Assembly (NCBI GenBank): GCA_013540605.1
Contig: JABVCK010000009.1
Coordinates: forward strand, 100,341 to 164,340
Source: Bacillota bacterium
GTDB taxonomy: Bacteria > Bacillota > Clostridia > Ch29
DNA length: 64,000 nucleotides
Direction of reading: 5' to 3'
The notes below the pieces were generated by a model that saw nothing but the letters and a program-made list of their open reading frames with translations, had not been told where the DNA came from and did no database searches. Shown piece after piece: positions 4,625-58,448 of the stretch (position 1 is the first letter of the stretch; every line of letters starts with the position of its first letter). The translations under genes and the position numbers were made by a program.

Positions 4625-5494
4625 ATGGAAAAGCGAATTTTAGCACCGGCTCAGGTAGCAGACGCCATGGTAGGTGTAGGATGCAAAAAATGCAGCTTAA
4701 AGACGTCCCAGATGATGCTTTTAGGAATATTTGCAGGGATGTTCATAGCCTTCGGCGCTTTTGCATCAGGGATGATATCCCATTCTATCGAAAACGTAGG
4801 TCTAGCCAAATTTGCAGGGGCAGCAGTATTCCCCGTAGGACTAATGCTCGTAGTAATATGCGGCGCCGAACTGTTTACCGGCAACAACCTCATAACCCTG
4901 GCCCTGTTCAACAAAGAAGTAACCGTATCCCAGATGCTCAAGAACTGGGTAGTAGTATATATAGGCAACTTCATAGGTTCCATAGCAGTAGCTCTATTAA
5001 TTTACTGGTCCGGCCTTTTAAACACAAGCGGCGGTGGTCTGGGGGGTCTTGCAATACGGGTAGCCTCTGCCAAGGTAAGCCTGACAATGGGCGAAGCCGT
5101 GGTAAGGGGGATACTTTGCAACATGCTCGTAGTACTGGCGGTATGGGCGGCAATAGCAGCCCAGGACGTAATAAGCAAGATATGGGCGTGCTGGTTCCCC
5201 ATCATGCTCTTTGTACTGTCGGGTTTTGAGCACAGCATAGCCAACATGTACTTCATCCCCGTAGGCATGCTGGCCAAGGGCAGCGCCAAGCTGGCGGAGG
5301 CCAGCGGTCTTGCAGCCGACAAGCTGGCGGGTATAAACGTGGGCACATTCCTTATCAACAACATAATACCCGTAACCATAGGCAACATAATAGGCGGCGC
5401 GTTCATAGTAGGCTGGGTTTACTGGTATGTGTTCAAGGGCTGCACCAAAGCAGCCGAAGCCCCTGCCACCGCTTCCCAATCCGTTGCAAAATAG
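4625..5494 (+). CDS. focA: Formate/nitrite transporter family channel (FocA/FdhC-like)
   Basis: 289-aa polytopic membrane protein with FNT-family architecture. Sits directly after fdhA. RBS AAGGAGGAG. Confidence 0.8.
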   Translation: MEKRILAPAQVADAMVGVGCKKCSLKTSQMMLLGIFAGMFIAFGAFASGMISHSIENVGLAKFAGAAVFPVGLMLVVICGAELFTGNNLITLALFNKEVTVSQMLKNWVVVYIGNFIGSIAVALLIYWSGLLNTSGGGLGGLAIRVASAKVSLTMGEAVVRGILCNMLVVLAVWAAIAAQDVISKIWACWFPIMLFVLSGFEHSIANMYFIPVGMLAKGSAKLAEASGLAADKLAGINVGTFLINNIIPVTIGNIIGGAFIVGWVYWYVFKGCTKAAEAPATASQSVAK

Positions 5495-9838: not shown

Positions 9839-11146
9839 ATGACAGTTGATTTACGCACAAAACTTGGACCCTTAACACTGAAAAACCCACTAGTTTCAGG
9901 AGGAGGACCGGTAGCCGGAACCTTGCAGCACATAAAGAATGCCTGCGATGCGGGCTTCGGTGCAATTGTCACAAAGACTGCTTCATATTATGGCGAATTC
10001 CAGAGATATCCAAGGCCTGTATATAATATTTGCGACATAAGAGTGGCGGCAGACGATCCGATCGGTATCTCCGAATGCTCCTGGATGCATAACGACCACA
10101 ACTCTGTATACCCGCCTCATCAGTTTGTTAAATTCTTGCCGGAGGCATCAGAGTATTGCAAGAAGAATGACTGCGTTCTTATTGGTAGTTTTGCAGGTGC
10201 CGGGCTGGAACAGTGGGAAAGGATGGCAAGGGATTATGTAGATGCAGGATGCCAGGCACTCGAATTGAACTTCTGTTGTCCTTACCCACAGGTAATGCCT
10301 GAGACCGCGCAAGGGAACGAGCACCTTATCGGCCAGACATTTGGGGATAACCCCGCCCTTGGCGCTGAAGTCATCAAGAGGTTGAAGCAGATTGTCGATG
10401 TTCCCATATTCCCGAAAATGCCGCCTACTGCTAGAAAGGACATTGTTAACATAGCAAAGATGTATAAAGAAGCTGGTGCCGATGGGATCACCATCTATGC
10501 TAACTCCATGGTTCTTAAGATAGACATTGAAACTGGTGAACCGATGGGCTGGGGGGCTTCGATAGGCAGCTCGCACGGCCATATGCTTGATACATGCCAG
10601 GACACCGCTAAAATAGCCAAAGAGGTTCCGGATTTCGCAATAATGTCTGGCCGTGGAGCCAGGTACTGGTACGATTGTATTGAGCTTCTCATGGCAGGCG
10701 CTGCTTCGGTACAGTACTCCGCTGCTATACACGTGTATGGGCTGAAGCATGTTAAGAGTATGCTCAATGATATGGAAAACTGGCTTGAGCGTAAAGGTTA
10801 TAAGTCTATTGAACAGGTTAAGGGGCTAGCTTTACCGAAGATCTACCGCTCCGCAGATGTTAAGAACAGAGTAAAAGCGTTGGTTGCGAAGGTAGATGCT
10901 AGTAAGTGTATCGCCTGCGGTCGCTGCGCTGAGGTATGCTTCTATGACGCTGCCGAGTTGTTTGTTAAAAATGGAAAAGGTGCTGCAAAAATCAATCAGG
11001 ACAACTGCGCCGGCTGCACCATCTGTGGACAAGTGTGTCCCAAGAAGTGTATTAGCTTTACTGAAAGGGCAGAAGAAATCGAATACCTTAGAGCGCTGGG
11101 TTCTGCTCATCCGGATCTGCTGCCTGATATCTTCGGCGAAAAATAA
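9839..11146 (+). CDS. Dihydroorotate/dihydropyrimidine dehydrogenase-family FMN oxidoreductase (PreA-like) with a C-terminal 2x[4Fe-4S] ferredoxin domain
   Basis: TIM-barrel DHOD-like core. C-terminal CIACGRCAEVC and CAGCTICGQVCP motifs. GGAGGA RBS 6 nt before the ATG at 9839. Confidence 0.65.
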   Translation: MTVDLRTKLGPLTLKNPLVSGGGPVAGTLQHIKNACDAGFGAIVTKTASYYGEFQRYPRPVYNICDIRVAADDPIGISECSWMHNDHNSVYPPHQFVKFLPEASEYCKKNDCVLIGSFAGAGLEQWERMARDYVDAGCQALELNFCCPYPQVMPETAQGNEHLIGQTFGDNPALGAEVIKRLKQIVDVPIFPKMPPTARKDIVNIAKMYKEAGADGITIYANSMVLKIDIETGEPMGWGASIGSSHGHMLDTCQDTAKIAKEVPDFAIMSGRGARYWYDCIELLMAGAASVQYSAAIHVYGLKHVKSMLNDMENWLERKGYKSIEQVKGLALPKIYRSADVKNRVKALVAKVDASKCIACGRCAEVCFYDAAELFVKNGKGAAKINQDNCAGCTICGQVCPKKCISFTERAEEIEYLRALGSAHPDLLPDIFGEK

Positions 11147-11173
11147 TGTGATATCCCTCGCTTTTGTTTAATT

Positions 11174-11211
11174 GCATATAGCGGTCTTATAATACTACGG
11201 CCGCTATATGC
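11174..11211 (+). terminator. Strong hairpin (11-bp perfect stem GCATATAGCGG/CCGCTATATGC) after the DHOD-like gene. Candidate terminator or attenuator.
   Basis: Perfect stem, but the 3' tail is not clearly U-rich. A similar TATAGCGG...CCGCTATA hairpin at 21850-21881 precedes another copy of the GGGGACATT repeat. Confidence 0.35.
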
Positions 11212-11251
11212 AGAACACAAGGTTTATTGCATGATTGAATATGGCTTGAGT

Positions 11252-11417
11252 GGGGACATTCCGCGGCAAGGAATACCCGCGTAGCAGCGGTGTGTCCCCA
11301 TACCGATCGGGGACATTCCGCGGCAAGGAATACCCGCGTAGCAGCGGTGTGTCCCCATACCGATCGGGGACATTCCGCGGCAAGGAATACCCGCGTAGCA
11401 GCGGTGTGTCCCCATAC
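11252..11417. repeat. Tandem array of a 57-bp hairpin repeat: 2 full units plus 1 slightly shorter unit. Unit is GGGGACATTCCGCGGCAAGGAATACCCGCGTAGCAGCGGTGTGTCCCCATACC(GATC).
   Basis: Units at 11252-11308, 11309-11365 and 11366-11417 are identical. The outer stem is GGGGACA/TGTCCCC and the inner stem is CGCGG/CCGCG. The array ends 18 nt before the leuC-like ATG, directly abutting the RBS AAAGGAGGA. Confidence 0.9.
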
Positions 11418-11435
11418 CTTAAAGGAGGAATTTTT

Positions 11436-12671
11436 ATGGGGCATAGCATGATCTACAAAATACTTGCTAAAAAAATAGGCGATCAGGATTTCAAGGCTGG
11501 AGAAATATATATGACACCCGCTGATCTTGTCTTCACCCATGAGGTCGGTACAGCTGGAACGATGAGGGTGCTTGACAAGATTGGTGCGACTGAGTTGTAT
11601 CCGATAGAGATGGTAATAATATCCGACCATTTTGTGCCTGCGTCTATACTAACCCATGCAATAAATCAGAAAAAGGCCCGTGATTTTGCAAAGAAATATG
11701 GCATTAGAAATTATTTTGAAATAGGGCGCGCTGGCATAGGGCATCAGGTACTTATTGAAAAAGGATTTATTCGCCCGGGAGAGATAGCCATAGCTACCGA
11801 CGCACACGCTACCACCTACGGAGCGCTGGGCTGTCTCGGTATAGGCGTTGGCGTTACCGACATGGCTGTGCTGCTCGCCAGCGGACAATATTGGCTAAAA
11901 TATCCGAAGGTACTCGGTATACGGTTGGAAGGGAAGCTGCGTCCCGGAGTCAGCGCTAAGGATGTAGCGCTTAAGCTTTTAGGCGATCTTGGCACAGATA
12001 ATCTTATTTATTGGATGGTAGAGTTTTATGGATCGGGTGTTTCAACGCTCAGTATAGACAGCCGCGCATGTTTGTGCAACATGATGTCAGAAGGTGGAGT
12101 AAAGTCATGTCTTGTTGCGCCTGACAATCTTGCGATGGAATATGTAAGTGCCAGAACGGACAAAAAATTCACTCCCTTTGTTCCCGATGAAGACGCATAC
12201 TATGACAAGTATTTAACGTTGGATCTTGACAAAGTTGAACCGATGGTCGCGATTCCCGATACACCGACAAATTGTGTGCCCCGAAAGAGCGTAAGCGGTG
12301 TGGAAATAGATCAGGCATTTATCGGTTCGTGTACTAACGGCCGTATTGAAGATTTAAGGATTGCGGCTGCTATATTGAAGGGGAAAAAGGTGCATCCCAA
12401 TGTTAGGTTGATCGTGTCTCCAGCGTCACACGAGATCTGGCAGCAAGCGCTCAACGAAGGCTTACTGACTATTTTTAACCAGAGCGGGGCGGTAGTCACT
12501 AACCCGACATGTGGAGCATGCATTGGAGCGCATGGTTTGCTTGCCCCAGGTGAGGTGTGCATCGCCACTTCAAACAGAAACTTCAAAGGCAGAATGGGAA
12601 GTATTGACGCGAAGATATATCTAGCTTCTCCTGAAACAGTAGCTTACGCTGCGCTGACAGGCAGGATATAA
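11436..12671 (+). CDS. Aconitase-family dehydratase large subunit. LeuC/HacA-like, short archaeal-type 3-isopropylmalate / homoaconitate / methylmalate dehydratase.
   Basis: 412 aa with aconitase-family Fe-S ligand regions. The ORF track's 11250 start reads through the repeat array (GTFRGKEYPRSSGVSPYRS x3) and is an artefact. The ATG at 11436 has an RBS. Confidence 0.75.
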   Translation: MGHSMIYKILAKKIGDQDFKAGEIYMTPADLVFTHEVGTAGTMRVLDKIGATELYPIEMVIISDHFVPASILTHAINQKKARDFAKKYGIRNYFEIGRAGIGHQVLIEKGFIRPGEIAIATDAHATTYGALGCLGIGVGVTDMAVLLASGQYWLKYPKVLGIRLEGKLRPGVSAKDVALKLLGDLGTDNLIYWMVEFYGSGVSTLSIDSRACLCNMMSEGGVKSCLVAPDNLAMEYVSARTDKKFTPFVPDEDAYYDKYLTLDLDKVEPMVAIPDTPTNCVPRKSVSGVEIDQAFIGSCTNGRIEDLRIAAAILKGKKVHPNVRLIVSPASHEIWQQALNEGLLTIFNQSGAVVTNPTCGACIGAHGLLAPGEVCIATSNRNFKGRMGSIDAKIYLASPETVAYAALTGRI

Positions 12672-21684: not shown

Positions 21685-21737
21685 AGTTAGTAATAGAATA
21701 TAGACAGACCGGTACATATCTAGTATAATTATTTATG

Positions 21738-21832
21738 AAAGAGCTCCGAGCCTTGGCTTCTAAGGGCAACTATGAAGCCGGGCCGATAGGGCATAAGGGG
21801 AAACCGTTGTGCCTCCCATGTTGGAAAGGAGT
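21738..21832 (+). promoter_or_regulatory. Candidate Moco/Wco riboswitch aptamer in the leader of the tungstate-transporter/moe/moa gene set
   Basis: A structured ~95-nt leader downstream of a TATAAT box (21724). It contains CUCCGAGCC, AUAGGGCAUAAGGGGAAAC, GCCUCCC and GGAAAGGAG segments, followed by an intrinsic terminator. The genomic context (tupABC, moeA, moaA, moaC) is classic for Moco RNA motifs. The motif identification is from memory and was not searched. Confidence 0.4.
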
Positions 21833-21849
21833 TATAAACAGCTGATTTT

Positions 21850-21890
21850 ATAGCGGTTTCCATCATGGATGGAACCGCTATATTTATTTC
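21850..21890 (+). terminator. Intrinsic terminator/attenuator hairpin (ATAGCGGTTTCCATC-atg-GATGGAACCGCTAT) with a U-rich tail, immediately after the riboswitch-like leader
   Basis: 14-15-bp stem with one bulge, followed by ATTTATTTC. Confidence 0.6.
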
Positions 21891-21920: not shown

Positions 21921-21967
21921 GGGGACATTCCGCGGCAAGGAATACCCGCCCTCAGCGGTGTGTCCCC
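21921..21967. repeat. Single copy of the GGGGACATTCCGCGGCAAGGAATACCCGC...GCGGTGTGTCCCC hairpin repeat in the tupA 5' UTR
   Basis: Same ends and outer stem as the 57-bp tandem unit at 11252. It ends 23 nt before the tupA ATG. Confidence 0.85.
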
Positions 21968-21990
21968 AAACATTAATTGGGGGTATTGAA

Positions 21991-22845
21991 ATGAAAAAAG
22001 TTCTATCCGTAGTGCTGCTGGTGGCTCTGGTTTTAACGCTGGTCTCGTGTGCAAAGCAGAATTTAGCGCCTGAACAGCCGGCTCAGGAAGAGCCGTTGGA
22101 GCCTATAACCCTGGCAACCACGACGAGTACCGAGAACTCCGGGCTGCTGGCGTACATACTTCCCGATTTTGAGGCTAAGTACAACACCCAAGTAAAGGTT
22201 GTAGCTGTGGGTACCGGTCAGGCCATGGAGATGGGCAAGAACGGCGATGCGGATGTGCTGCTCGTGCACGCCAAGGAATCCGAACTCCAATTTGTAGCTG
22301 AGGGCTATGGCGTTGACAGGCACGAGGTCATGTACAACGATTTTATTATAGTCGGGCCTCCCGAAGATCCCGCAGGGCTGAAGGCTGGAGCGGGGTCCGA
22401 CGCGGTGGAGGCCTTGAAATTGATCGCCGGTAAGCAGGTTCCCTTTACTTCAAGGGGAGATAACTCCGGGACCCACCAGAAGGAAACAGCTCTGTGGAAA
22501 GAAGCGGGTATTGAGCCGGCAGGCGACTGGTACAAATCGGTTGGTAAGGGTATGGGTCCGTCTTTGACCTTTGCCAGCGAAGAAAAGGCATATATACTCA
22601 CCGACAGGGCTACGTATCTTTCGATGAAGGACAGCCTTGATCTGGCCGTTCTGGTGGAGGGAGACGAACTGCTCTTCAACCAGTACGGAGTTATTAAGGT
22701 TAATCCTGAAAAGCACCCGGGAATAAACAAAAGGGGTGCGGATAAGTTTGTAGAATGGATACTATCGGAGGAAGTACAGGCGAAGATAGCTGAATTCGGC
22801 AAGGACAAGTTCGGCCAGAGCCTGTTCATACCGAATGGTAAATAG
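21991..22845 (+). CDS. tupA: Tungstate ABC transporter substrate-binding protein
   Basis: Signal peptide with lipobox (LVSCAK). TTTSTENSGLL and SRGDNSGTHQKE motifs are characteristic of TupA. Confidence 0.75.
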   Translation: MKKVLSVVLLVALVLTLVSCAKQNLAPEQPAQEEPLEPITLATTTSTENSGLLAYILPDFEAKYNTQVKVVAVGTGQAMEMGKNGDADVLLVHAKESELQFVAEGYGVDRHEVMYNDFIIVGPPEDPAGLKAGAGSDAVEALKLIAGKQVPFTSRGDNSGTHQKETALWKEAGIEPAGDWYKSVGKGMGPSLTFASEEKAYILTDRATYLSMKDSLDLAVLVEGDELLFNQYGVIKVNPEKHPGINKRGADKFVEWILSEEVQAKIAEFGKDKFGQSLFIPNGK

Positions 22846-27451: not shown

Positions 27452-28417
27452 ATGCGTGATAAATTCAACCGAGGCATTGATTATATGAGGGTTTCGGTTA
27501 CCGACCTTTGCAACCTTAGGTGCTTTTACTGCATGCCCGAAGACGGGGTGTGCAAAAGAGGTCATGGGGATGTTTTGAGGTATGAAGAAATTGTCCAAAT
27601 AGTAGAAGAGGGTGCAAAAATAGGAATAAACAAGATAAGGATAACCGGCGGAGAACCTCTGGTAAGGCCCGGTATAGAGGAACTTGTCGCCAGGATAAGT
27701 GAAATTGAAGGAATAAAGGAAGTATCCATGACAACTAACGGCATCCTGCTGGACGGCAAGGTGAAGGAACTTAAAAGGGCAGGGCTGAACAGAATCAATA
27801 TAAGCATGGACTCCCTCAACCCGGGCAAGTATAGGAGGATTACCAGGGGTGGCAGCCTGGAAAGGGTCTTCAGGGCAGTAAACACCTGCCTGGAAGAGGG
27901 TATTAAGCCCGTCAAAACAAACACCGTTATCCTTAAGGGCATAAACGACGATGAGATAGAGGACTTTGCCCGTTTAACCACTGTACTGCCGATACATGTC
28001 AGGTTCATTGAACTGATGCCCGTTGGTGAGGCAGCAGAGGTTTATGATAAATACTACATGTCCGTTGACGAGGTTATGGCGAAACTGCCCGGACTTGTAC
28101 CCGCTGTTCAGGGCATGGGCAACGGCCCGGCTGAGTGTTACGCATATAAAGGAGCCCTGGGAACAGTTGGTTTTATTGCGGCACTGAGCCATAATTTCTG
28201 CCGAAACTGCAACAGGATAAGGCTTACCGCCGACGGCAAGATTAAACCCTGTCTGAACAGCAATGTGGAAGTGGACCTAAAACCTGCCATTCGGGAAGGA
28301 AAGGGCAGTGTTGCGGAATTGTTCGGAGCAGCGATCGGGCAAAAACCCGAGAAGCATCACATGGAAGAGATGCAGGACGCCGGCGGGAACAGGCGAATGT
28401 ACCAAATCGGAGGGTGA
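27452..28417 (+). CDS. moaA: GTP 3',8-cyclase (radical SAM)
   Basis: CNLRCFYC radical-SAM motif and C-terminal FCRNCNRIRLTADGKIKPCL motif. Confidence 0.85.
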   Translation: MRDKFNRGIDYMRVSVTDLCNLRCFYCMPEDGVCKRGHGDVLRYEEIVQIVEEGAKIGINKIRITGGEPLVRPGIEELVARISEIEGIKEVSMTTNGILLDGKVKELKRAGLNRINISMDSLNPGKYRRITRGGSLERVFRAVNTCLEEGIKPVKTNTVILKGINDDEIEDFARLTTVLPIHVRFIELMPVGEAAEVYDKYYMSVDEVMAKLPGLVPAVQGMGNGPAECYAYKGALGTVGFIAALSHNFCRNCNRIRLTADGKIKPCLNSNVEVDLKPAIREGKGSVAELFGAAIGQKPEKHHMEEMQDAGGNRRMYQIGG

Positions 28418-28430
28418 TTTTATGAGCAGT

Positions 28431-28982
28431 TTTACCCATTTTAATACCGACGGCAGGGCCAAAATGGTAAACGTAAGCGGTAAGGATGTTACAACCAGGG
28501 AAGCGGTTGCCCGAGGAAGGGTATACATGAAAAGCGAGACAATCGACCTCATTGAAAAGGGCCGGATGAAGAAGGGCGATGTGCTTGCCGTTGCCCAGGT
28601 GGGTGGAATAATGGGAGCCAAGCAGACATGGAGCCTGATACCTATGTGCCACCCCCTGAATATAAGCGGAGTTGACATGGCCTTCGAACTGAACAGGGAT
28701 ATAAGCGCCGTTGAAATAGAAGCAAGGGTTTCGGTCGAAGGGAAAACGGGGGTTGAGATGGAAGCCCTTACCGCGGTGTCGATCGGAGCCCTTACGGTAT
28801 ATGACATGTGTAAGGCGGTAGATAAGGAAATGGTAATAGGAGATATCATGCTGGTGAAGAAGACCGGCGGCAAGTCGGGAGATTTTGTTAGTAGCGTGGT
28901 AATATGTCAAGAAAAAGTTTTTGGAACCTTGTTCGATAGAGCCAAGGAAGAACTTCGAGAACATACTGAGGAAAAAGGATAG
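28431..28982 (+). CDS. moaC: Cyclic pyranopterin monophosphate synthase
   Basis: 183 aa. MoaC fold motifs (VDMAFELNRD, EMEALTAVSIGALTVYDMCKA). The ATG at 28431 has a GGAGGG RBS. Confidence 0.8.
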   Translation, partial: FTHFNTDGRAKMVNVSGKDVTTREAVARGRVYMKSETIDLIEKGRMKKGDVLAVAQVGGIMGAKQTWSLIPMCHPLNISGVDMAFELNRDISAVEIEARVSVEGKTGVEMEALTAVSIGALTVYDMCKAVDKEMVIGDIMLVKKTGGKSGDFVSSVVICQEKVFGTLFDRAKEELREHTEEKG

Positions 28983-29439: not shown

Positions 29440-29640
29440 CCAAACTTGACCAGCTGCTATAGCCAGTGGCTAGTGGTTAATGATCAGTGGTCATGACAGA
29501 TCACAGATCACAGACGTCAGGGAAGTGCTTATGGGAAAACCCAAGATTTTGCCCAAGAACCTGTGACCTGTGAACTACGAACCAGCAACTCCACCTGCCA
29601 TCTGCCATCTATGACCCAGGATCCAGTATCCAGAACTTAA
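29440..29640. repeat. Low-complexity intergenic repeat family B: CAGTGG/CAGATCA-rich, containing ACCTGTGAACTACGAAC
   Basis: Shares the exact 17-mer CCTGTGAACTACGAAC and CAGTGGTCA-type iterations with the element at 40340-40420. Confidence 0.6.
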
Positions 29641-29769: not shown

Positions 29770-30655
29770 AAAGATGGCGCATTTCATGGCATTCTTCCTT
29801 CACCTGGCTTATTTCCAGAAGCACTTCTCCGTCCTGATCCGGTACCGGATATCCAGCTGCAGTGCCTTATGCCTTCCGTAGTAATGTTTTCCGCAAACTT
29901 CTTCCGGTAACACAGCCCTTTATGCCCAGTAAGTAATCTTATCATATGCTCTCTGCCAGCAGGCTCACCTGCTCGTTATTTTCCGCATGCCATGTCGCCT
30001 TCCGCCCGAAATCCTTTATGAAGTTACCCCTCAGCTATACCTCTTGGGGACCTCTTTTCGCTAATGTTGCCAAATCTCACTTTCCTCTATCATTTCCATA
30101 CCTCCTAACAAAATTCCTCCGACTTGCCGCCGCCGGTCTTCACCAGCATGATATCTCCTATTACCATTTCCTTATCTACCGCCTACACATGTCATATACC
30201 GTAAAGGGTTCGATCGACAATCGCGGTAAAGGGCTTCCATCTCAACCCCCGTTTTTCCTTCGACCGAAACCCTGTTTCTATTTCAACGGCGCTTATACCC
30301 TCTGTTCAGTTCTCGAAGGCCATGTCAACTCCGCTTATATTCAGGGTGGCACATAGGTATCAGGTTCATGTTCGCTTGGCTCCCATTATTCACCACCTGG
30401 GCAACGGCAAAGTTAACATCGCCCTTCTTCATCCGGCCCTTTTCAATGAGGTCGATTGTCTCTGCTTTTCATATACCCCTTCGGCAACCGCTTCCCTGGT
30501 TGTAACATCCTACCGCCACGTTTTGGCCCTGCCGTCGGTATTAAAATGGGTAAACTGCTCAAAATCACCTCCTCGATTTTGGTACACATTTCGCCTGTTC
30601 CCGCCGGCGTCCTGCATTCTTCCACGTGGGAGGGCAAGAGATACCTGGATGGTTC
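29770..30655 (-). pseudogene. Decayed inverted duplicate of a moa segment: moaA 3' end, moaC-like region with indels and frameshifts, and a frameshifted MOSC-domain remnant
   Basis: The reverse complement of 30040-30650 aligns at nucleotide level with 28330-28900 (moaA end plus moaC). For example, cctaacaaaattcctccgacttgccgcc at ~30095 matches the reverse complement of 28861-28890, and tcctcgattttggtacacatttcgcctgttcccgccggcgtcctgca matches the reverse complement of the moaA stop region. Minus-strand frames at 29770-29935 read ...KKFAENITTEGI... and GEVLLEISQVKEECHEM, which are MOSC-domain motifs split by frameshifts. Only short ORFs remain. Confidence 0.65.
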
Positions 30656-35633: not shown

Positions 35634-36215
35634 ATGGAACTATTGTTACTGTTTATAAGCACAGTATTGATAAACAATTTCGTTCTGTCAAGGTTCCTTG
35701 GAATATGTCCCTTCCTGGGAGTGTCCAAGAAGCTTGAAGTAGCGTTCAGCATGGGATTGGCTGCCACCTTTGTTATGACCCTTTCGGCCATAGCAACCTG
35801 GCTAATCCAGCACTATATACTGATGCCTTTCGGTATGGAGAGATTTCTCCAGTATGTTGCTTTTATTCTTGTTATAGCATCCCTGGTCCAGTTTGTGGAG
35901 ATGTTTCTCAAGAAAAACAGCCCGGCGCTGTACCAGAGCCTTGGCATATTTCTGCCGCTGATTACAACCAACTGTGCAATTCTTGGCCTTGCGCTGCTGT
36001 CAGCGCTGAACGGATATGGTCTGGTAACCAGTACGGTATTTGGTTTTGGCGCCGGTGTCGGATTTACGCTGGCGATCTCAGCAATGGCGGGTCTGAGGGA
36101 AGCAATGGAATTTGGAGATGTTCCGGTGCCCTTCAAGGGAGTGCCGATAACTCTGATAACTGCGGCGATTATGTCGATGGCGTTTCTGGGGTTTTCCGGC
36201 CTTATTGCCATGTAA
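35634..36215 (+). CDS. rnfA: Rnf complex subunit A
   Basis: 193-aa membrane protein of the NqrE/RnfA family. Confidence 0.8.
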   Translation: MELLLLFISTVLINNFVLSRFLGICPFLGVSKKLEVAFSMGLAATFVMTLSAIATWLIQHYILMPFGMERFLQYVAFILVIASLVQFVEMFLKKNSPALYQSLGIFLPLITTNCAILGLALLSALNGYGLVTSTVFGFGAGVGFTLAISAMAGLREAMEFGDVPVPFKGVPITLITAAIMSMAFLGFSGLIAM

Positions 36216-36224
36216 ATGATTGAT

Positions 36225-36248
36225 CGGGGACATTCCGTGGTGAGTCCC
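36225..36248. repeat. Minimal copy of the GGGGACATTCC...GTCCCC hairpin (GGGGACATTCCGTGGTGAGTCCCC) in the rnfA-rnfB junction / rnfB 5' region
   Basis: Same 5' end (GATCGGGGACATTCCG) as the 57-bp unit. It lies 25 nt before the rnfB ATG. Confidence 0.6.
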
Positions 36249-36272
36249 CTGACCTTATTGGAGGTGAAAAAA

Positions 36273-37307
36273 ATGGATAATACAGTCCTAATTGCAGTAG
36301 TAAGTATGGGCGCTATAGGAGTGTTTTTCGCCGCTTTCCTTGCCTTTGCATCTACAAAATTCGCTGTTGAGGAGGACCCGAGGGTCGAAGCGGTGCAGAG
36401 CATACTCCCGGGGGCGAACTGCGGTGCCTGTGGGCAGGCAGGGTGCTCCAACTTTGCTGCGGCTGTTGTAGCCGGAGAAGTACCGGTATACGGCTGTCCG
36501 GTGGGCGGCAGTGAAACAGGTGACAAGATTGCCGAAATCCTGGGTATGGAAGGCAGCGGTGGCAGCGGAGGCAAAAAAGCTGTTGCAAAGGTTATGTGTA
36601 ATGGTGATGACGAAAAATGCAAGAACAAATATAGATATATCGGCGTTCAGGACTGCGTGGCGGCAAGCAGGATGGCCGGTGGCGGTCCAAAGGCGTGTGA
36701 ATACGGCTGTCTGGGCCTGGGGACATGCGTGGGGGTATGTCCGGTGGATGCCATTACGATAAGCGAGGATGGTCTTGCGGTAATAGATGAGGAAAAGTGC
36801 ATAGGATGCGAAAAATGCGTTGCCGCATGTCCTAAGAATGTAATCAGGATGGTACCGTACGGACAGCAGGTGCACGTGATGTGCAACAACCCTGAACCCG
36901 GGAAAATCGTCAGGAAAAAGTGTGAGGTGGGCTGCATCGCTTGCAAAAAATGCGAGAAGGCATGTAAATTCGATGCCATTCACGTGGAAGGCAATCTCGC
37001 TAAGATAGACTATGAAAAATGTACTGAATGTATGGAGTGCGTGAAGGCCTGTCCTACCTATACAATCGTGGGGGATCTGGAAAACAGGAAAATAGCCAGG
37101 ATCCTTGAAGACAAATGCATCAAATGTACGATATGCAAAAAGAACTGTCCCTTTGAGGCGATAGAGGGTGAAGTCAAACAGCCCCACAGAGTCCTTGAAG
37201 ACATTTGTGTCGGGTGCGGGGTTTGTTACGAGAAATGTCCTAAAGACGCTATCGAGATGATAGGTAGCAAAGTCGAAAAAAACAAAAATTCAAAGGAAGT
37301 TGTTTAA
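36273..37307 (+). CDS. rnfB: Rnf complex subunit B (polyferredoxin type)
   Basis: N-terminal TM, a 4Fe-4S Fe-S-binding region (CGACGQAGC...GCPVGG) and multiple C-x2-C-x2-C-x3-CP motifs. The ATG at 36273 has a GGAGGTG RBS. Confidence 0.85.
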   Translation: MDNTVLIAVVSMGAIGVFFAAFLAFASTKFAVEEDPRVEAVQSILPGANCGACGQAGCSNFAAAVVAGEVPVYGCPVGGSETGDKIAEILGMEGSGGSGGKKAVAKVMCNGDDEKCKNKYRYIGVQDCVAASRMAGGGPKACEYGCLGLGTCVGVCPVDAITISEDGLAVIDEEKCIGCEKCVAACPKNVIRMVPYGQQVHVMCNNPEPGKIVRKKCEVGCIACKKCEKACKFDAIHVEGNLAKIDYEKCTECMECVKACPTYTIVGDLENRKIARILEDKCIKCTICKKNCPFEAIEGEVKQPHRVLEDICVGCGVCYEKCPKDAIEMIGSKVEKNKNSKEVV

Positions 37308-37457: not shown

Positions 37458-38960
37458 GTGAATTTATTGAAACCTTTTGTTTTTATCCATGAAAATGCCT
37501 ATGGTTTTTCCAATGCCTTAAAAGTGCAGAGTGAGGAGTATTCTGTGCAAAAGGGTGTTGAAAACGTGGAAAGGATAATGGATAGCTATGACTTGGGATT
37601 ACTGCTTACGGTAAAGGAGGATTTACTGAAGCGCCGGGAAGAGTACAGAAGGCTTAAGAAAAGATTCGCCTTTTTGAATATAGCATTGGCTCAGGATGAA
37701 CCTGCCGATGTGCTTTATAGCGATATCATTGACGATGTATTTTCCGGTGGGGATGACTGGGATGGGAGGATTAGAAATATTTTTCTTGTCAGCCGCTCCA
37801 ACAAAACGTGTCTCCAGATTAATGCCAGGGACTTAGTTGCCATGGGAGAATTTGACCTTTTCAATGACAACATGCTGATACAGCCCGGAAATATTGACAT
37901 AAGCCATTTCAAATCCATCATACGGTATGTTGATACCTGTATCAGACCGGGACATATTAATAAAATATGTCTATGTGTAACCGGCCGAAAAAACCTGCGG
38001 TGCGAATGCTCCAACTGTAGTTTGCCATTCAAACCGCATCATATTCCGATAAAGCTGAGCTTCAACGGACAGGACTACCTCATAGGCTGGACAAGGGCGC
38101 TTCCGGTTGCGGGTGGCCAGGATGATGCTGATATAGCAGCTCATTTTGCCAAAATGCTGGCATCAATAGCCGGCGCCTGGGCGTCTGATGTTTATTCAGT
38201 TGTTTTTAAACTCTTCAGCAGCAGTATTGACCTAATATTTAAGGATATCACCCGCCGACAGGAAGAGGAAGAAAGAAAGGAGCAGCGGGAAAAGCTGCTG
38301 CTGGCAGGGGAATTGGCAGCGTCTATTTCCCATGAAATCAAAAATCCGCTGTCGGTGATATCGGGACTATTACAGCTTTTCAAGGATAAGGAGAATATAC
38401 AAGAAGGCGCGATTAAAAAATATGCTGATATGGGGCTTAAGGAACTGAGTAGGATACAAGGCCTGCTGGAGGAATACCTGTCGACGGTAAAAACGGGCAG
38501 CATAAAACCCGAAATCATAGATGTCATAGATGTTATTGATGAGTTTATTGTTCTGCTGCGCCTATCCATGGGTGCGTCCACGGTGAGTATACGTTTCAAC
38601 GCCTCCGGAAATGTTCCCGCTATAAAGGTCGATGTGTCCCAACTCAAGCAGGTGATACTGAATCTCGTGCAAAATGCGGTTCATGCCGTAGAGGGCAGCG
38701 GATGGATAGAAATAAGGACTTTATACGATGAGCAGGCCGACAGAGTCCTGATCGAAATTGAAGATAACGGCGTAGGTATACCCAACGATTGTATTGACAA
38801 AATCTTTAAGCCCTTTTATACTACAAAGAAAAACGGTACCGGTCTGGGTTTGTTTTTATGCAGGCGGCTGGTTATTGAAAACGGTGGAGGCATAGAGGTT
38901 GACAGCAAACCGGGACAGGGAAGCAAATTTACAGTTTGGTTTCCGGCGCACCGTGACTAA
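37458..38960 (+). CDS. Orphan sensor histidine kinase (HisKA plus HATPase_c) with an N-terminal ~270-aa domain of unknown function
   Basis: H-box SHEIKNPLS and N/G1/G2 boxes (NLVQNAVHAV, DNGVGI, GTGLGL). GTG at 37458 or TTG at 37467 are possible starts, downstream of GAGGTG. Confidence 0.7.
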   Translation: MNLLKPFVFIHENAYGFSNALKVQSEEYSVQKGVENVERIMDSYDLGLLLTVKEDLLKRREEYRRLKKRFAFLNIALAQDEPADVLYSDIIDDVFSGGDDWDGRIRNIFLVSRSNKTCLQINARDLVAMGEFDLFNDNMLIQPGNIDISHFKSIIRYVDTCIRPGHINKICLCVTGRKNLRCECSNCSLPFKPHHIPIKLSFNGQDYLIGWTRALPVAGGQDDADIAAHFAKMLASIAGAWASDVYSVVFKLFSSSIDLIFKDITRRQEEEERKEQREKLLLAGELAASISHEIKNPLSVISGLLQLFKDKENIQEGAIKKYADMGLKELSRIQGLLEEYLSTVKTGSIKPEIIDVIDVIDEFIVLLRLSMGASTVSIRFNASGNVPAIKVDVSQLKQVILNLVQNAVHAVEGSGWIEIRTLYDEQADRVLIEIEDNGVGIPNDCIDKIFKPFYTTKKNGTGLGLFLCRRLVIENGGGIEVDSKPGQGSKFTVWFPAHRD

Positions 38961-38964
38961 TTTC

Positions 38965-39085
38965 GGGGACATTCCGCCGCAAGGAACTTTAATGGGGACA
39001 TTTCTTGGCCATAAAGGAATACTAAAAATGAAGGTGTGTCCCCTGGCCTTATAGGCGCAGCGGTGTGTCCCCATACCTTAAAAGG
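38965..39085. repeat. Composite, nested copy of the GGGGACATT...TGTCCCC hairpin element. The 5' half of one unit is followed by an inserted variant unit and then the 3' half.
   Basis: GGGGACATTCCGCCGCAAGGAAC // GGGGACATTTCTTGGCC...GTGTGTCCCC // TGGCCTTATAGGCGCAGCGGTGTGTCCCCATACC. It ends 8 nt before the RBS of the DUF1015 gene with the same CCATACC-TTAAAAGGAGGA junction as at 11417. Confidence 0.8.
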
Positions 39086-39093
39086 AGGACAAT

Positions 39094-40338
39094 ATGGCTG
39101 TAATAAAACCCTTTAAGGGTATCAGGCCGGTGGAAGAGCTGGCCGAAAAGGTAGCAGCCCTTCCCTATGATGTGATGACAAGGGAAGAGGCAGAAAATCT
39201 GGTCGAGGGCAATCCACTGTCATTTTTGCGGGTTGACCGGGCAGAGATTGAGCTTCCGCGGGAGGTTCCATTCAATCATTCCAGTGTGTATGAGCGGGCG
39301 GCTTACAATTTGGAAAAACTTATGAAGAGTGGAGTACTGAAGCAGGACAGCAGGGAAGTATTTTATATTTATCAACTGGAGGTTGGAGGCAGGCGCCAGT
39401 CGGGACTGGTTGCATGCTTTTCAATCGACGATTATCTGAGCGGTGTTATCAAGAAGCATGAGCATACAACGGAGGATAAAGAAAAGGACCGGATCCGCCA
39501 TGTGAAGGCCTGCAACGCCCATACAGGTCCAATACTGCTTTTCAACAGGGAGGATGTCCGGGTGAACCAGGTTATGGAATCCTGGATGAAAGGGCATAAG
39601 CCGGTTTATGACTTTTCTGCTCAAGACAATGTTGAACACAGGGTATGGGTCATCGATGAAACCAATGTAATCTATGAGCTGAAAAATTTGTTCAGTGGAA
39701 TTGACAAACTGTACATAGCCGACGGCCACCATCGGTGCGCTGCCGCGGTAAAAGTTGGGCTGGACAAGAGAAAAGGCGTGCTTCATGGGGATGAGGAATA
39801 CAATTATTTTCTCGGTGTAGTTTTTCCCCATAACCAGCTTCGGATCCTTGACTATAACAGGGTGGTCCGGGACCTGAACGGCCTGTCGGTCAGCCGTTTT
39901 CTCGACAGGGTTAGTCTGTATTTTGATATAAATCCCATTCAAAACGGGGAAGCATACAAACCCGGCCATATCCATAGTTTTGGCATGTTTGTGGATGGCG
40001 GGTGGTATGAATTGATAGCAAAACCAGGGACTTGGAACGATGAGGACCCGGTTGAGAGGCTCGATGTCCGTATACTCCAGAACAATCTGCTGGGGCCCAT
40101 TCTTGGGATAGAGGATCCCAGAAAGGATAAAAGGATCGAATTTGTAGGAGGAAGCAGAAGGCTGATTGAACTGGAAAACATGGTCAGACAGCAGGGGGAA
40201 GGCGCCGCATTTGCCCTATATCCCACTTCCATTGTCCAGTTGATGGATGTGGCTGACATGGGAAAAATTATGCCGCCCAAATCCACCTGGTTTGAACCCA
40301 AGCTGAGGAGCGGCCTGTTCATTCATGATATAGGCTAA
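39094..40338 (+). CDS. DUF1015 family protein (function unknown)
   Basis: 414 aa. N-terminal MAVIKPFKGIRP is the conserved DUF1015 start. Confidence 0.6.
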   Translation: MAVIKPFKGIRPVEELAEKVAALPYDVMTREEAENLVEGNPLSFLRVDRAEIELPREVPFNHSSVYERAAYNLEKLMKSGVLKQDSREVFYIYQLEVGGRRQSGLVACFSIDDYLSGVIKKHEHTTEDKEKDRIRHVKACNAHTGPILLFNREDVRVNQVMESWMKGHKPVYDFSAQDNVEHRVWVIDETNVIYELKNLFSGIDKLYIADGHHRCAAAVKVGLDKRKGVLHGDEEYNYFLGVVFPHNQLRILDYNRVVRDLNGLSVSRFLDRVSLYFDINPIQNGEAYKPGHIHSFGMFVDGGWYELIAKPGTWNDEDPVERLDVRILQNNLLGPILGIEDPRKDKRIEFVGGSRRLIELENMVRQQGEGAAFALYPTSIVQLMDVADMGKIMPPKSTWFEPKLRSGLFIHDIG

Positions 40339-40339
40339 T

Positions 40340-40420
40340 CAGTTGCCAGAGTATAGTTACCAGTGGTCAGTGGTCAGTGACCAGTGACTAGCACCTAGTA
40401 CCTAGTACCTGTGAACTACG
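40340..40420. repeat. Low-complexity repeat family B copy (CAGTGGTCAGTGGTCAGTGACCAGTGAC ... TAGTACCTAGTACCTGTGAACTACGAAC) between convergent genes
   Basis: Iterated CAGTGG/CAGTGAC and TAGTACC units. Shares the 17-mer with 29563-29590. Confidence 0.6.
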
Positions 40421-43317: not shown

Positions 43318-43372
43318 GTATTGGGCTATTCAGTTCCCATATTGGGCTATTCAACCCTCAAAATGGGCTATT
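43318..43372. promoter_or_regulatory. Three direct repeats (TATTGGGCTATTCA x2 and AAATGGGCTATTCA) with 21-bp periodicity. Candidate LytTR-regulator binding sites.
   Basis: Repeats at 43318-43331, 43339-43352 and 43359-43372. LytTR regulators (AgrA, PlnC, ComE) bind 9-bp direct repeats separated by 12-bp spacers. Located 50 nt downstream of the regulator gene. Confidence 0.55.
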
Positions 43373-43723
43373 CAGGAAAACGGGAAGGAAAGGTTAAAAG
43401 GGGTGTAGAATACAATAATAGGAAAAAATAACATCCCTGCCGGAGGACAAGCTCTGGCCGAGACTGACACCGGCAGGGACCACCCTTTACCTGTCAGAGA
43501 CAGGCTGGGAGTTAAGTCTATTATACCTCCCTCCTCTGTCTCTGTAAAGGTAAAGGAGACTCTAAGAGGGAGGAGTGGTGTGTATTAAAATATAAAAATA
43601 ATTAGAGTAATTTTGTCGGCAGATTATTCTGAACACGAAGGAACGTTGTAGTTTGGTGGGAATATTATTCGTAGTTCTATCTTACGAATAATATTTACTA
43701 AAAATACGAGGGAGTGTATTATT

Positions 43724-44347: not shown

Positions 44348-44589
44348 AAGCTGTTAAATCGTCTTGCAAAAATATAGAGGATGATTATAATCATCCTCTA
44401 TATTTTTGCTCCATTATATGCTCATTTTATGCAGGAATGATTCGAGGTTACAATAATAGCCTAAATATAGTATACTGTGATTGATATTACCAAATTAGGC
44501 AAGAGTAAAGTTTGACTCTTAAGTTGATATTTTTTGACTTATACCCGATTGGTGTTTTGCTTTAAAAACTAATAAATGGAGGTAAATCT

Positions 44590-58222: not shown

Positions 58223-58448
58223 ACCATCGCCTCCGAAGATATTATACTATAGGAAGGATAATAAAAAAAGCGCCTCCCGCACTCCGCTATGGAACCCTAG
58301 GTTCCTTCGGCGTCCGGCACTTACTCATATATGCTTCCTTACTCTTATATACTTTGTAGTAAGTGCCGGACTGAGCACCCTCCTTAAACCGGCGGGGAAC
58401 CTTTCCCCTGCACCCCTTCCTTTTTTTATAACACTCTCGAAAACTCGT

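Follow-up and report, generated by a model that had tools for sequence, protein, structure and literature searches.

A REP-like palindromic repeat family of anaerobic Bacillota, probably mobilised by a Y1 transposase

Among the RAYT-like Y1 transposases is a group named TIRYT, whose genes ('TIRtrons') are bounded by inverted repeats with the motif GGGGWSAS, and some of these inverted repeats are also dispersed as singles, dimers or groups (Di Nocera 2013, PMC3733652; Quentin 2018, PMC6006769). Here we describe a family of short palindromic repeats that recurs in a 64,000-nt stretch of the genome of a Bacillota bacterium (GenBank assembly GCA_013540605.1, contig JABVCK010000009.1, positions 100,341 to 164,340), which is referred to as the window. 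The copies are probably a non-autonomous palindromic DNA repeat resembling repetitive extragenic palindromes (REPs) and bacterial interspersed mosaic elements (BIMEs), mobilised by a Y1 transposase and with secondary effects on neighbouring genes. An earlier reading of the same sequence (the original prediction) had favoured either a genome-specific RNA element acting in cis at the junction of 5′ leader and ribosome-binding site, or a small mobile element inserting near ribosome-binding sites.

Copies in the window were located by direct reading of the sequence, Tandem Repeats Finder and a mismatch-tolerant 20-mer search (Table 1). The three head-to-tail 57-bp units of the original prediction are present and perfect (2.9 copies, 100% matches, score 334), and direct reading also found the further copies proposed in the tupA, rnfB and DUF1015 leaders. 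The 20-mer GGGGACATTCCGCGGCAAGG has five matches in the window at three or fewer mismatches, against 0.01 expected from shuffled sequences. A unit of the array is a 48-nt hairpin with the tail ATACC, and GATC joins successive units. In the DUF1015 leader the outer head (38965-38986) and the outer 3′ arm (39057-39072), which is followed by ATACC, enclose a complete inner element with its own tail at 38994-39049 (hairpin 38994-39043). The fold of one array unit has a predicted energy of -25.5 kcal/mol (z = -3.9), that of the tupA copy -26.0 kcal/mol (z = -4.3) and that of the nested copy -45.8 kcal/mol (z = -4.0); the minimal rnfB copy, which had been placed one nucleotide too far upstream at 36225-36248, folds weakly (-9.3 kcal/mol, z = -0.9). 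The window matches a public assembly of the same organism, GCA_030017455.1, at 99.6-99.9% identity, with a T/C polymorphism at 39003 (hairpin position 10) in the nested copy. Public short-read assemblies of this organism stop inside the array (L119 1-67) and inside the nested copy (L121 1-34). The copy number of three is that of the present assembly only, because the contig of GCA_030017455.1 breaks within the array.

As proposed, every copy abuts a Shine-Dalgarno (SD) sequence, from which it is separated by a tail of 10-12 nt. The junctions are ATACCTTAAA-GGAGG for the array, AAACATTAATTG-GGGGG for tupA (ATG at 21991), TGACCTTATT-GGAGGTG for rnfB (ATG at 36273) and ATACCTTAAAA-GGAGG for the DUF1015 gene (ATG at 39094); two of them had been described as sharing an identical sequence, and these differ by one A. 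The tupA copy sits 12 nt 5′ of GGGGG. The rnfB copy is preceded by the rnfA stop codon (36213-36215) and followed by the rnfB SD (36260-36266), and the nested copy begins 4 nt past the stop codon of a histidine-kinase gene (38958-38960), its outer hairpin ending 11 nt ahead of the DUF1015 SD (39084-39088). The array lies between a PreA/dihydroorotate-dehydrogenase-like Fe-S gene, which ends at 11146, and an aconitase-family gene. The gene identities given earlier hold, and so does the statement that the downstream genes are functionally unrelated: they encode an aconitase/isopropylmalate-dehydratase large subunit, a TupA-like tungstate-binding protein, RnfB and a DUF1015 protein. All copies in the window are on the + strand, but this says little about orientation since nearly all long open reading frames (ORFs) in the window are also on that strand.

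To define the family, the pattern GGGGACATTN{4,34}GGTGWGTCCCC, with the head GGGGACATT, was scanned over one genome per GTDB species (596 Gb). At least 118 loci were found, and the matches listed come from approximately 80 assemblies, counted by accession prefix, of many families of mostly anaerobic Bacillota, so that the element is not genome-specific as had been thought. The listed taxa include Peptococcaceae, Desulfotomaculaceae, Desulfocucumis, Pelotomaculum, Desulfosporosinus, Syntrophomonadaceae, Thermacetogeniaceae, Dethiobacter, Sedimentibacter, Tissierellia, Peptoniphilaceae, Anaerovorax, Ruminiclostridium, Hungateiclostridiaceae, Oscillospiraceae and Gracilibacter; a few listed bins bear the labels Deltaproteobacteria, Desulfovibrio, Actinomycetota or Synergistaceae. 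Since by our own arithmetic the approximately 19.5 specified bases would give about 70 chance matches in 596 Gb, the matches were checked. They are judged to be real because positions left free by the pattern are conserved, because the free inner positions are complementary, because many loci carry several copies and because the matches cluster in one phylum. A few are probably chance matches, such as L038, which lacks the CC and lies within a long ORF. Plasmid and phage collections gave no blastn match to the element, and IMG/VR contained six loci only.

The family statistics that follow are drawn from the listed loci, plus the window where stated. A unit consists of GGGGACATTCC, an inner stem with a variable loop, GGTGTGTCCCC, and a tail with the consensus TTwCC then TT(a/t). 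The consensus of 141 distinct hairpins is caT..ATT in the 5′ flank, GGGGACATTCCTC ... GAGGTGTGTCCCC in the hairpin and TTwCCTT(a/t) in the tail. The hairpin is 24-54 nt long overall, including the minimal form of the window, with two size classes of 29-31 nt and 48-54 nt. Several positions that the pattern did not impose are conserved: position 10 is C in 96% of copies and position 11 in 98%, and tail positions +4 and +5 are C in 92% and 74%. A GTAG or CGTC tetranucleotide is absent from the logos of flanks and ends (..ATT before GGGGACATTCC, and TTwCC after GGTGTGTCCCC). No Rfam family matched the element at gathering score or at E-values up to 10; the best E-value was 0.088 (17.9 bits against a gathering score of 37), and low-scoring overlaps with Polynucleobacter-1 and freshwater-2 were taken as chance. 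Literature searches with the strings GGGGACATT(CC) and GGTGTGTCCCC returned primers and unrelated papers only, and searches on REPs in Clostridia, Desulfotomaculum and Syntrophomonas returned nothing specific to the element.

Pairing of the arms is maintained by compensatory changes. Positions 1-7 form Watson-Crick pairs. T.G occupies position 8, 98% of copies have a T.T mismatch at position 9, and positions 10-13 are paired in 96-99% of copies, with compensatory changes at position 12 (TA 111, CG 14, GC 5, AT 2) and position 13 (CG 85, TA 26, GC 12). Over 53 distinct end-pairs 94.8% of cells are paired, and in the covariation analysis that the original prediction had suggested, 48 cells were changed on both sides, compared with 16.2 +/- 3.7 in shuffles, none of 500 of which reached as high; slid registers of the arms scored far lower. 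The inner helix had been drawn as CGCGG/CCGCG, and here both the minimum-energy fold and the family support another arrangement: in the window unit the outer stem is followed by U.U and then by CCGC (positions 10-13) paired with GCGG. The reverse strand folds nearly as well (-20.4 compared with -23 kcal/mol). The two arms are not perfect inverted repeats of each other: ATT in the 5′ arm corresponds to ACA in the 3′ arm read in reverse complement. Because the arms differ and the tail stands on one side only, the element has a fixed polarity. One T.T mismatch and an asymmetric tail are kept together with the pairing.

Placement was assessed with a simple gene model of longest-ORF calls on the 118 listed loci and the window. 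Out of 144 sites, 99 were intergenic, 12 lay in predicted ORFs, mostly doubtful ones, and 33 were at locus edges, so that approximately 89% (99/111) of assessable sites are intergenic. Relative to the element strand, the flanking genes were both forward at 31 sites and both reverse at 34, divergent (-+) at 16 and convergent (+-) at 18; between co-directional genes the element is therefore sense 31 times and antisense 34 times. Random orientation and position, which the original prediction had taken as the mark of a simple dispersed repeat, is found for orientation but only weakly for position, the family being overwhelmingly intergenic. Packing is frequently tight in either orientation, with a stop codon, 1-8 nt, the element, approximately 20 nt including the SD, and a start codon. 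For solo copies with GGAG or GAGG within 30 nt downstream, the spacing from CCCC to this motif peaks at 10-13 nt (9/15), in agreement with the proposed insertion near ribosome-binding sites; set against this, only about 23% of sites adjacent to a gene start are within 31 nt of the start codon, and the figure is the same for both ends of the element. No target-site duplication was detected among 88 solo copies, which had 13 matches of 5 nt between flanks where 6.6 were expected, a weak excess over shuffled pairings, and nothing longer.

Empty sites were found in relatives with RnfA proteins 84-93% identical to that of the window, where the rnfA stop codon is followed by 2-14 nt, GGAGGTGAAA and ATG. 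In the window the order is stop codon, ATGATTGATC, hairpin, TGACCTTATT, GGAGGTGAAAAAAA and ATG, and the spacer is approximately 31-42 nt longer, including the hairpin, 5′ of the same SD. Because related genomes keep this SD without the element, the SD is native and the element was inserted just 5′ of it. The element is not present in the DUF1015 leaders of the same relatives. The rnfB empty sites and these DUF1015 leaders offer an analogy for the array, which would likewise abut the aconitase-family gene's own ribosome-binding site at 11424-11428. In-frame copies also occur, after PQDIEWC, in genes for rifampin-phosphotransferase-like, phosphoenolpyruvate-utilising enzymes at three loci in three genera (Table 1). 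The element is indifferent to the direction of transcription, almost always intergenic, and present or absent between related genomes. Together with conserved ends around a variable interior, arrays and nesting, the empty sites with their native SD favour the small mobile element of the original prediction. In one relative the rnfB-DUF1015 spacer (L122 3762-3830) contains GGGACAAG motifs in tandem as well as the hairpin GGGACGGTTCTTTGTCCC, a further motif of the GGGAC type.

Table 1. Copies of the element in the window, adjoining features, and copies and related hairpins at other loci
Feature	Position	Strand	Context or remark
Tandem array, three identical units	11252-11418	+	Hairpins 11252-11299, 11309-11356, 11366-11413
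Junction TTAAA, GGAGG (11424-11428), ATG (11436)	11419-11438	+	Taken to lie outside the repeat
Single 47-nt copy with tail AAACA	21921-21972 (hairpin 21921-21967)	+	tupA leader
Minimal 24-nt copy, GGGGAC/GTCCCC stem only, with tail TGACC	36226-36254 (hairpin 36226-36249)	+	rnfA-rnfB spacer
Nested copy	38965-39077 (outer hairpin 38965-39072)	+	DUF1015 leader
Unrelated hairpin GCATATAGCGG..CCGCTATATGC	11174-11211	+	Not a family member
In-frame copy, short form	L072 4917-4948		Syntrophomonas; +13 aa relative to PDB 5FBS
In-frame copy, nested form	L009 365-415	-	Syntrophomonadaceae bin
In-frame copy, long form	L044 5960-6011		Desulfosporosinus; possible pseudogene
Sister-family hairpins	L221 179, 9346, 10791, 14332; partial 1447		Arms are the inverted repeat of the Y1_Tnp gene

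Two types of array were observed. In the first, whole units stand head to tail and are joined by the first 3-5 nt of the tail and a 5′ extension of 4-8 nt, for example ATACC+GATC in the window and TTTC+ATACGTT in L064. In the second, repeated 5′ halves are followed by one complete hairpin and repeated 3′ halves, the numbers of 5′ and 3′ halves being similar but sometimes unequal (3/3 in L004, 4/4 in L023, 4/5 in L117, 2/3 in L021, 4-5/2 in L112). The 3′ break of the outer copy lies just 5′ of (G)GAGGTG and 11-13 nt past the inner CCCC in 13/16 cases, whereas the 5′ break is variable. Arrays may grow when a new copy inserts inside or beside one already present and slippage then occurs between the direct repeats so formed; recent slippage would fit the window array, because its three units are perfectly identical. 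In some Peptococcaceae the hairpin is one module within larger mosaics. A variant organisation is seen at L030, where units made up of the tail only (..GGTGTGTCCCCTTTCCTT..) recur with a period of 86-87 nt after each of two paralogous genes for methyl-accepting chemotaxis proteins (MCPs), at 2523-2729 and 5165-5441.

The ends of the element point to TIRYT proteins as candidate mobilisers. The reverse complement of the 3′ arm, GGGGACAC, is an exact fit to GGGGWSAS, and the 5′ arm, GGGGACAT, fits at 7/8 positions. An alignment of three TIRYT sequences was used as a query against the metagenomes of the Joint Genome Institute (JGI). The proteins of the best 80 loci share 66-80% identity with the query across 200 residues and have the Pfam domains Y1_Tnp and Bac_DnaA_C (a DnaA_C-like helix-turn-helix). 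In 67/67 of these loci with enough upstream sequence GGGAC[GA] was present 51-64 nt 5′ of the ATG (mode 57), and the inverse motif lies directly past the stop codon. The heads, approximately 58 nt 5′ of the ATG, are mostly GGGGACG[TC]; three loci (L155, L194, L203) have GGGGACAC or GGGGACAT. Two or more direct copies of the head were present at 15/67 loci, and multiplied tails at three, which is the same end architecture as in the nested arrays of the element.

This metagenomic clade is largely deltaproteobacterial. A Bacillota clade of shorter proteins (approximately 260 aa), annotated 'REP element-mobilizing transposase RayT', has the inverted repeat (G)GGACGGTTC / (G)GGACGGTTCTTTTTG in Acetoanaerobium, Clostridiales GWB2_37_7, L219 and L220. 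At L221 the inverted repeat of the Y1_Tnp gene, GGACGGTTCTTTTTGCTTC, doubles as the arms of four perfect hairpins and one partial hairpin distributed over 20 kb, one of them directly past the stop codon of the gene. Hairpins of this sister family have the ends GGGGACGGTTC..GAACCGTCCCC, and the relation between gene and repeat was seen in L221, L220, L213 and L212. The GGGGACGGTTC-ended hairpins co-occur with the GGGGACAT family in many loci, among them L001, L062, L071, L082, L085 and L101, and in L062, L071, L082 and L085 a GGGGACAT hairpin occupies the centre of a GGGGACGGTTC element. From these sequence relationships we infer that a TIRYT protein would move the GGGGACAT family too; a Y1 transposase is the likely mobiliser. 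In such a mechanism the folded single strand would be recognised and moved by a trans-acting HUH Y1 transposase of RAYT/TIRYT type, whose own gene would be bounded by inverted repeats beginning GGGGAC(G/A).

Searches for a cognate enzyme gave negative results, and several observations weigh against this interpretation. A Y1 transposase gene flanked by GGGGACATTCC was not found in approximately 0.9 Mb of element-bearing loci, and tblastn with three Y1 queries and 18 real TIRYT proteins detected no Y1 gene in the 118 listed loci and the window. A weak match in L002 proved to be a 43-aa TnpA-like remnant 2.4 kb from the element, and matches in L039 and L065 were a DDE transposase and RseP. None of four Bacillota homologue loci has a TIRYT gene flanked by GGGGACATTCC, all four being of the GGGACGGTTC type, and no GGGGACG-type hairpins were present beside the best 80 metagenomic TIRtrons, within their short flanks. 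TIRYT relatives are essentially absent from viral contigs. The likeness to TIRtron ends amounts to approximately 7-8 nt and the architecture. IS200/IS605-type single-strand transposition usually leaves an orientation bias, and the family has none relative to the predominant gene strand. The query was validated only afterwards, by its identity to real genes, and the TIRYT papers cited (PMC3733652, PMC6006769) report an experimental demonstration of TIRYT-mediated mobility for no family. Finally, all four window sites are sense and abut an SD, compared with approximately 23% family-wide, and local selection or a target preference is therefore possible.

The abutment to SD sequences may arise because, under selection, insertions survive only in the few nucleotides that separate a stop codon from the next SD, or because the element targets a GAGGTG-like motif that SDs naturally imitate. 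The sequence GGAGGTG serves as the local SD and also opens the inner part of the 3′ arm. In a tentative alternative, which we hold to be improbable though not negligible, the element would be the remnant of a target-specific single-strand transposon that inserts 10-13 nt 5′ of GAGGTG, with a Bacillota TIRYT as the enzyme and SDs as decoys. Hairpins would then nest in hairpins because GAGGTG is the inner part of their own 3′ arm, and copies would abut ribosome-binding sites because GAGGTG is the canonical SD of Bacillota; strong hairpins would be placed systematically between stop codons and the next SD throughout the phylum. Somewhat less probable again is a selfish origin followed by exaptation, in which intercistronic hairpins shield mRNA from exonucleases or damp translation of the upstream gene near its stop codon. 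REPs in E. coli stabilise upstream mRNA, and those within 15 nt of a stop codon reduce expression; many copies of the present family are tightly packed between stop and start codons in either orientation, two window copies begin 4 and 10 nt past a stop codon, and no terminator-like T run follows. Related genomes nevertheless do without the element at the same junctions, and packing beside stops and SDs is to be expected anyway, as spacers are short and disruptive insertions are lost. A dedicated cis-acting RNA element at the leader/ribosome-binding-site junction, be it an mRNA stabiliser, a translational operator or a thermometer, has been largely refuted already and is now very improbable. 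It would account for the 4/4 sense copies ending 10-12 nt ahead of an SD, for stable hairpins (z = -3.9 to -4.3) with a covarying inner stem, and for the recurrence of sense copies with the junction CCTTAAA(A)GGAGG in other genomes (L073, L084, L068). It does not fit the equal numbers of sense and antisense copies between co-directional genes, the 18 sites between convergent genes, the unrelated functions of the downstream genes, relatives with the same leaders and an unchanged SD but no element, a copy in frame within a coding sequence, the lack of an Rfam match or a reverse strand that folds nearly equally well.

We consider it just as doubtful that the element is a classical miniature inverted-repeat transposable element (MITE), whose double-stranded DNA would be moved by a DDE transposase through recognition of the terminal inverted repeats. 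Its ends are inverted repeats, GGGGACA/TGTCCCC, its presence is polymorphic, and Tn3-type ends also start with GGGG; against these points stand the lack of target-site duplications, units as short as 24-31 nt, arms that stay paired through compensatory changes, a fixed T.T mismatch that tells the strands apart, and the fact that no DDE gene recurs near the elements. Nor did any recurrent ORF bracketed by a lone head and tail appear as a full-length autonomous element, and clustering of 758 neighbouring ORFs gave generic families only (ABC ATPases, histidine kinases, MCPs). The end sequences are conserved across classes, the element is independent of orientation, and BIMEs in E. coli bind gyrase and integration host factor, all of which would suit DNA-level binding sites for a conserved host protein (a nucleoid-associated protein, gyrase or similar) kept by selection. 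This too is highly unlikely, since identical tandem units, nesting, empty sites and assembly breaks point to recent copying, and covarying arms are needless in a double-stranded binding site. Further candidates were rejected. An intrinsic terminator does not agree with the window tails ATACC, AAACA and TGACC or with the absence of a terminator-like site in 11100-11460, the consensus TTTCCTT being only partly T-rich; a CRISPR-like array would not have contiguous units with a constant 9-nt junction and no unique spacers; and for type III toxin-antitoxin (ToxI-like) repeats the gene downstream encodes an aconitase-family dehydratase instead of a toxin. Integron attC sites, ribozymes and a resemblance of the tail to the 3′ end of 16S rRNA were considered and dropped.

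The four window sites probably lie in transcribed leaders or intercistronic spacers, in sense orientation and just 5′ of native ribosome-binding sites. Transcription in the sense direction is very likely at all four, because no promoter-like or terminator-like site in 11100-11460 cuts the array off from the upstream gene, because the rnfB copy lies in the rnf operon and the tupA copy between a riboswitch hairpin and the SD, and because the nested copy begins so close to a stop codon. The tupA leader contains a Moco/tungsten riboswitch aptamer (Rfam RF01055, 68.7 bits) at 21732-21847 (+), 5′ of the TupA-like gene; the copy is located between the terminator-like hairpin of this riboswitch (21850-21881) and the SD, and therefore represents an insertion into a riboswitch-controlled leader. 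The mRNAs would bear hairpins of -9 to -46 kcal/mol 10-12 nt ahead of the SD, which at two sites (after rnfA and the histidine-kinase gene) would stand 4-10 nt past the upstream stop codon. Hairpins can block exonucleases, and in E. coli a REP within approximately 15 nt of a stop codon can make the upstream gene less strongly expressed; similar side effects may occur here. Changes in mRNA stability or translation, if any, would be a by-product with no dedicated regulatory design, because relatives function without the element and because the family ignores orientation.

Of the interval given in the original prediction, 11174-11417, the part from 11174 to 11211 is an unrelated hairpin. The hairpins at 11178-11207 and 21850-21881 have a common stem, ATAGCGG/CCGCTAT (two matches, none expected in 100 shuffles), and each stands 40-70 nt 5′ of a GGGGACA element. 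They could represent an additional module of a mosaic repeat, or terminator stems that are alike by coincidence. Elsewhere in the window, a Clostridiales-2 sRNA match at 58300-58425 (-) scored above the gathering score (RF02937, 65.2 bits), and a duplication of approximately 500 bp (28370-28886 and 30111-30617; segments 88-100% complementary, flanking approximately 1.2 kb) appears to be a gene segment present twice in inverted orientation. There is also a perfect 44-bp palindrome at 44366-44409, a 21-bp tandem repeat of 2.7 copies at 43319-43375, and two patches of 7-nt repeats at 29496-29610 and 40355-40410 with CCTGTGAACTACGAAC common to both.

If this interpretation is correct, many anaerobic Bacillota carry a REP-like family that annotation pipelines and Rfam have missed, among them syntrophs, sulfate reducers and fermenters represented mainly by metagenome bins, and the putative link between RAYT/TIRYT Y1 transposases and GGGGAC-ended repeats would reach Gram-positive lineages. 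The element has practical consequences. Its arrays break short-read assemblies, and it yields spurious N-terminal extensions: an ORF at 11250-12671, starting at GTG 11250, runs through the window array and would give the aconitase-family gene the 62-aa repeat peptide that had been recognised as spurious, where the public annotation begins at ATG 11436. It also puts strong hairpins into operon junctions and riboswitch leaders and can give enzymes extra peptide loops. The repeats in the window should not be taken for a shared regulatory signal tying tupA, rnfB, the DUF1015 gene and the aconitase-like gene together. Points of interest are the conservation of the ends across Bacillota families, the unusual nested architecture and the in-frame copies in three genera. 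Culturable hosts are Desulfocucumis palustris, Pelotomaculum propionicicum, Desulfoscipio geothermicus and Desulfotruncus alcoholivorax.

The family is absent from Rfam and from the searchable literature, and behaves like a REP/BIME or a TIRtron-derived repeat. The Correia/NEMIS, BOX and RUP elements of Neisseria and Streptococcus are 100-200 bp long, with target duplications (TA for Correia) and links to DDE transposases. They too are small, non-autonomous and co-transcribed with their neighbours, their RNA hairpins can alter mRNA processing, and BOX elements are likewise modular; the present element has neither a target duplication nor a DDE link. Rickettsia palindromic elements (RPEs; 100-150 bp) lie in frame within protein genes, to which they add a peptide loop, as the element does in the rifampin-phosphotransferase homologue with 13 additional residues relative to PDB 5FBS. 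RPEs belong to another lineage, and coding insertions of the element are exceptional, being confined to one gene family at three loci.

With the REP, BIME and REPIN sequences that accompany RAYT genes in E. coli, Pseudomonas and Stenotrophomonas, the element has in common short imperfect palindromes in many extragenic copies (here four sites per 64-kb window), clusters and mosaics with other modules, often within operons, presence or absence between strains, and a presumed mode of mobilisation in which a domesticated Y1 transposase acts on a single-strand hairpin. It differs in lacking a GTAG or CGTC tag. Each REP family is specific to a species, whereas the ends of the element are identical across many Bacillota families, and REP dimers are typically head-to-head or tail-to-tail, whereas the element forms nested arrays of half-elements. 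In comparison with TIRtron repeats (PMC3733652; subclass 2.1 of TnpA-REP, PMC6006769), searches of the element-bearing loci turned up no TIRYT gene cognate to the GGGGACATTCC type, the two arms of the element differ consistently (ATT and, in reverse complement, ACA), its units are much shorter than the 25-35 nt inverted repeats of TIRtrons, and its hosts are mostly Bacillota, whereas described TIRtrons are from Proteobacteria and Acidobacteria. In both systems, however, the ends begin with GGGGAC(A/G) and match GGGGWSAS, copies are dispersed as singles, dimers and groups, some are self-complementary, and end motifs are multiplied at both ends; and in Bacillota the sister family uses the inverted repeat of its Y1 transposase gene as the arms of its hairpins.

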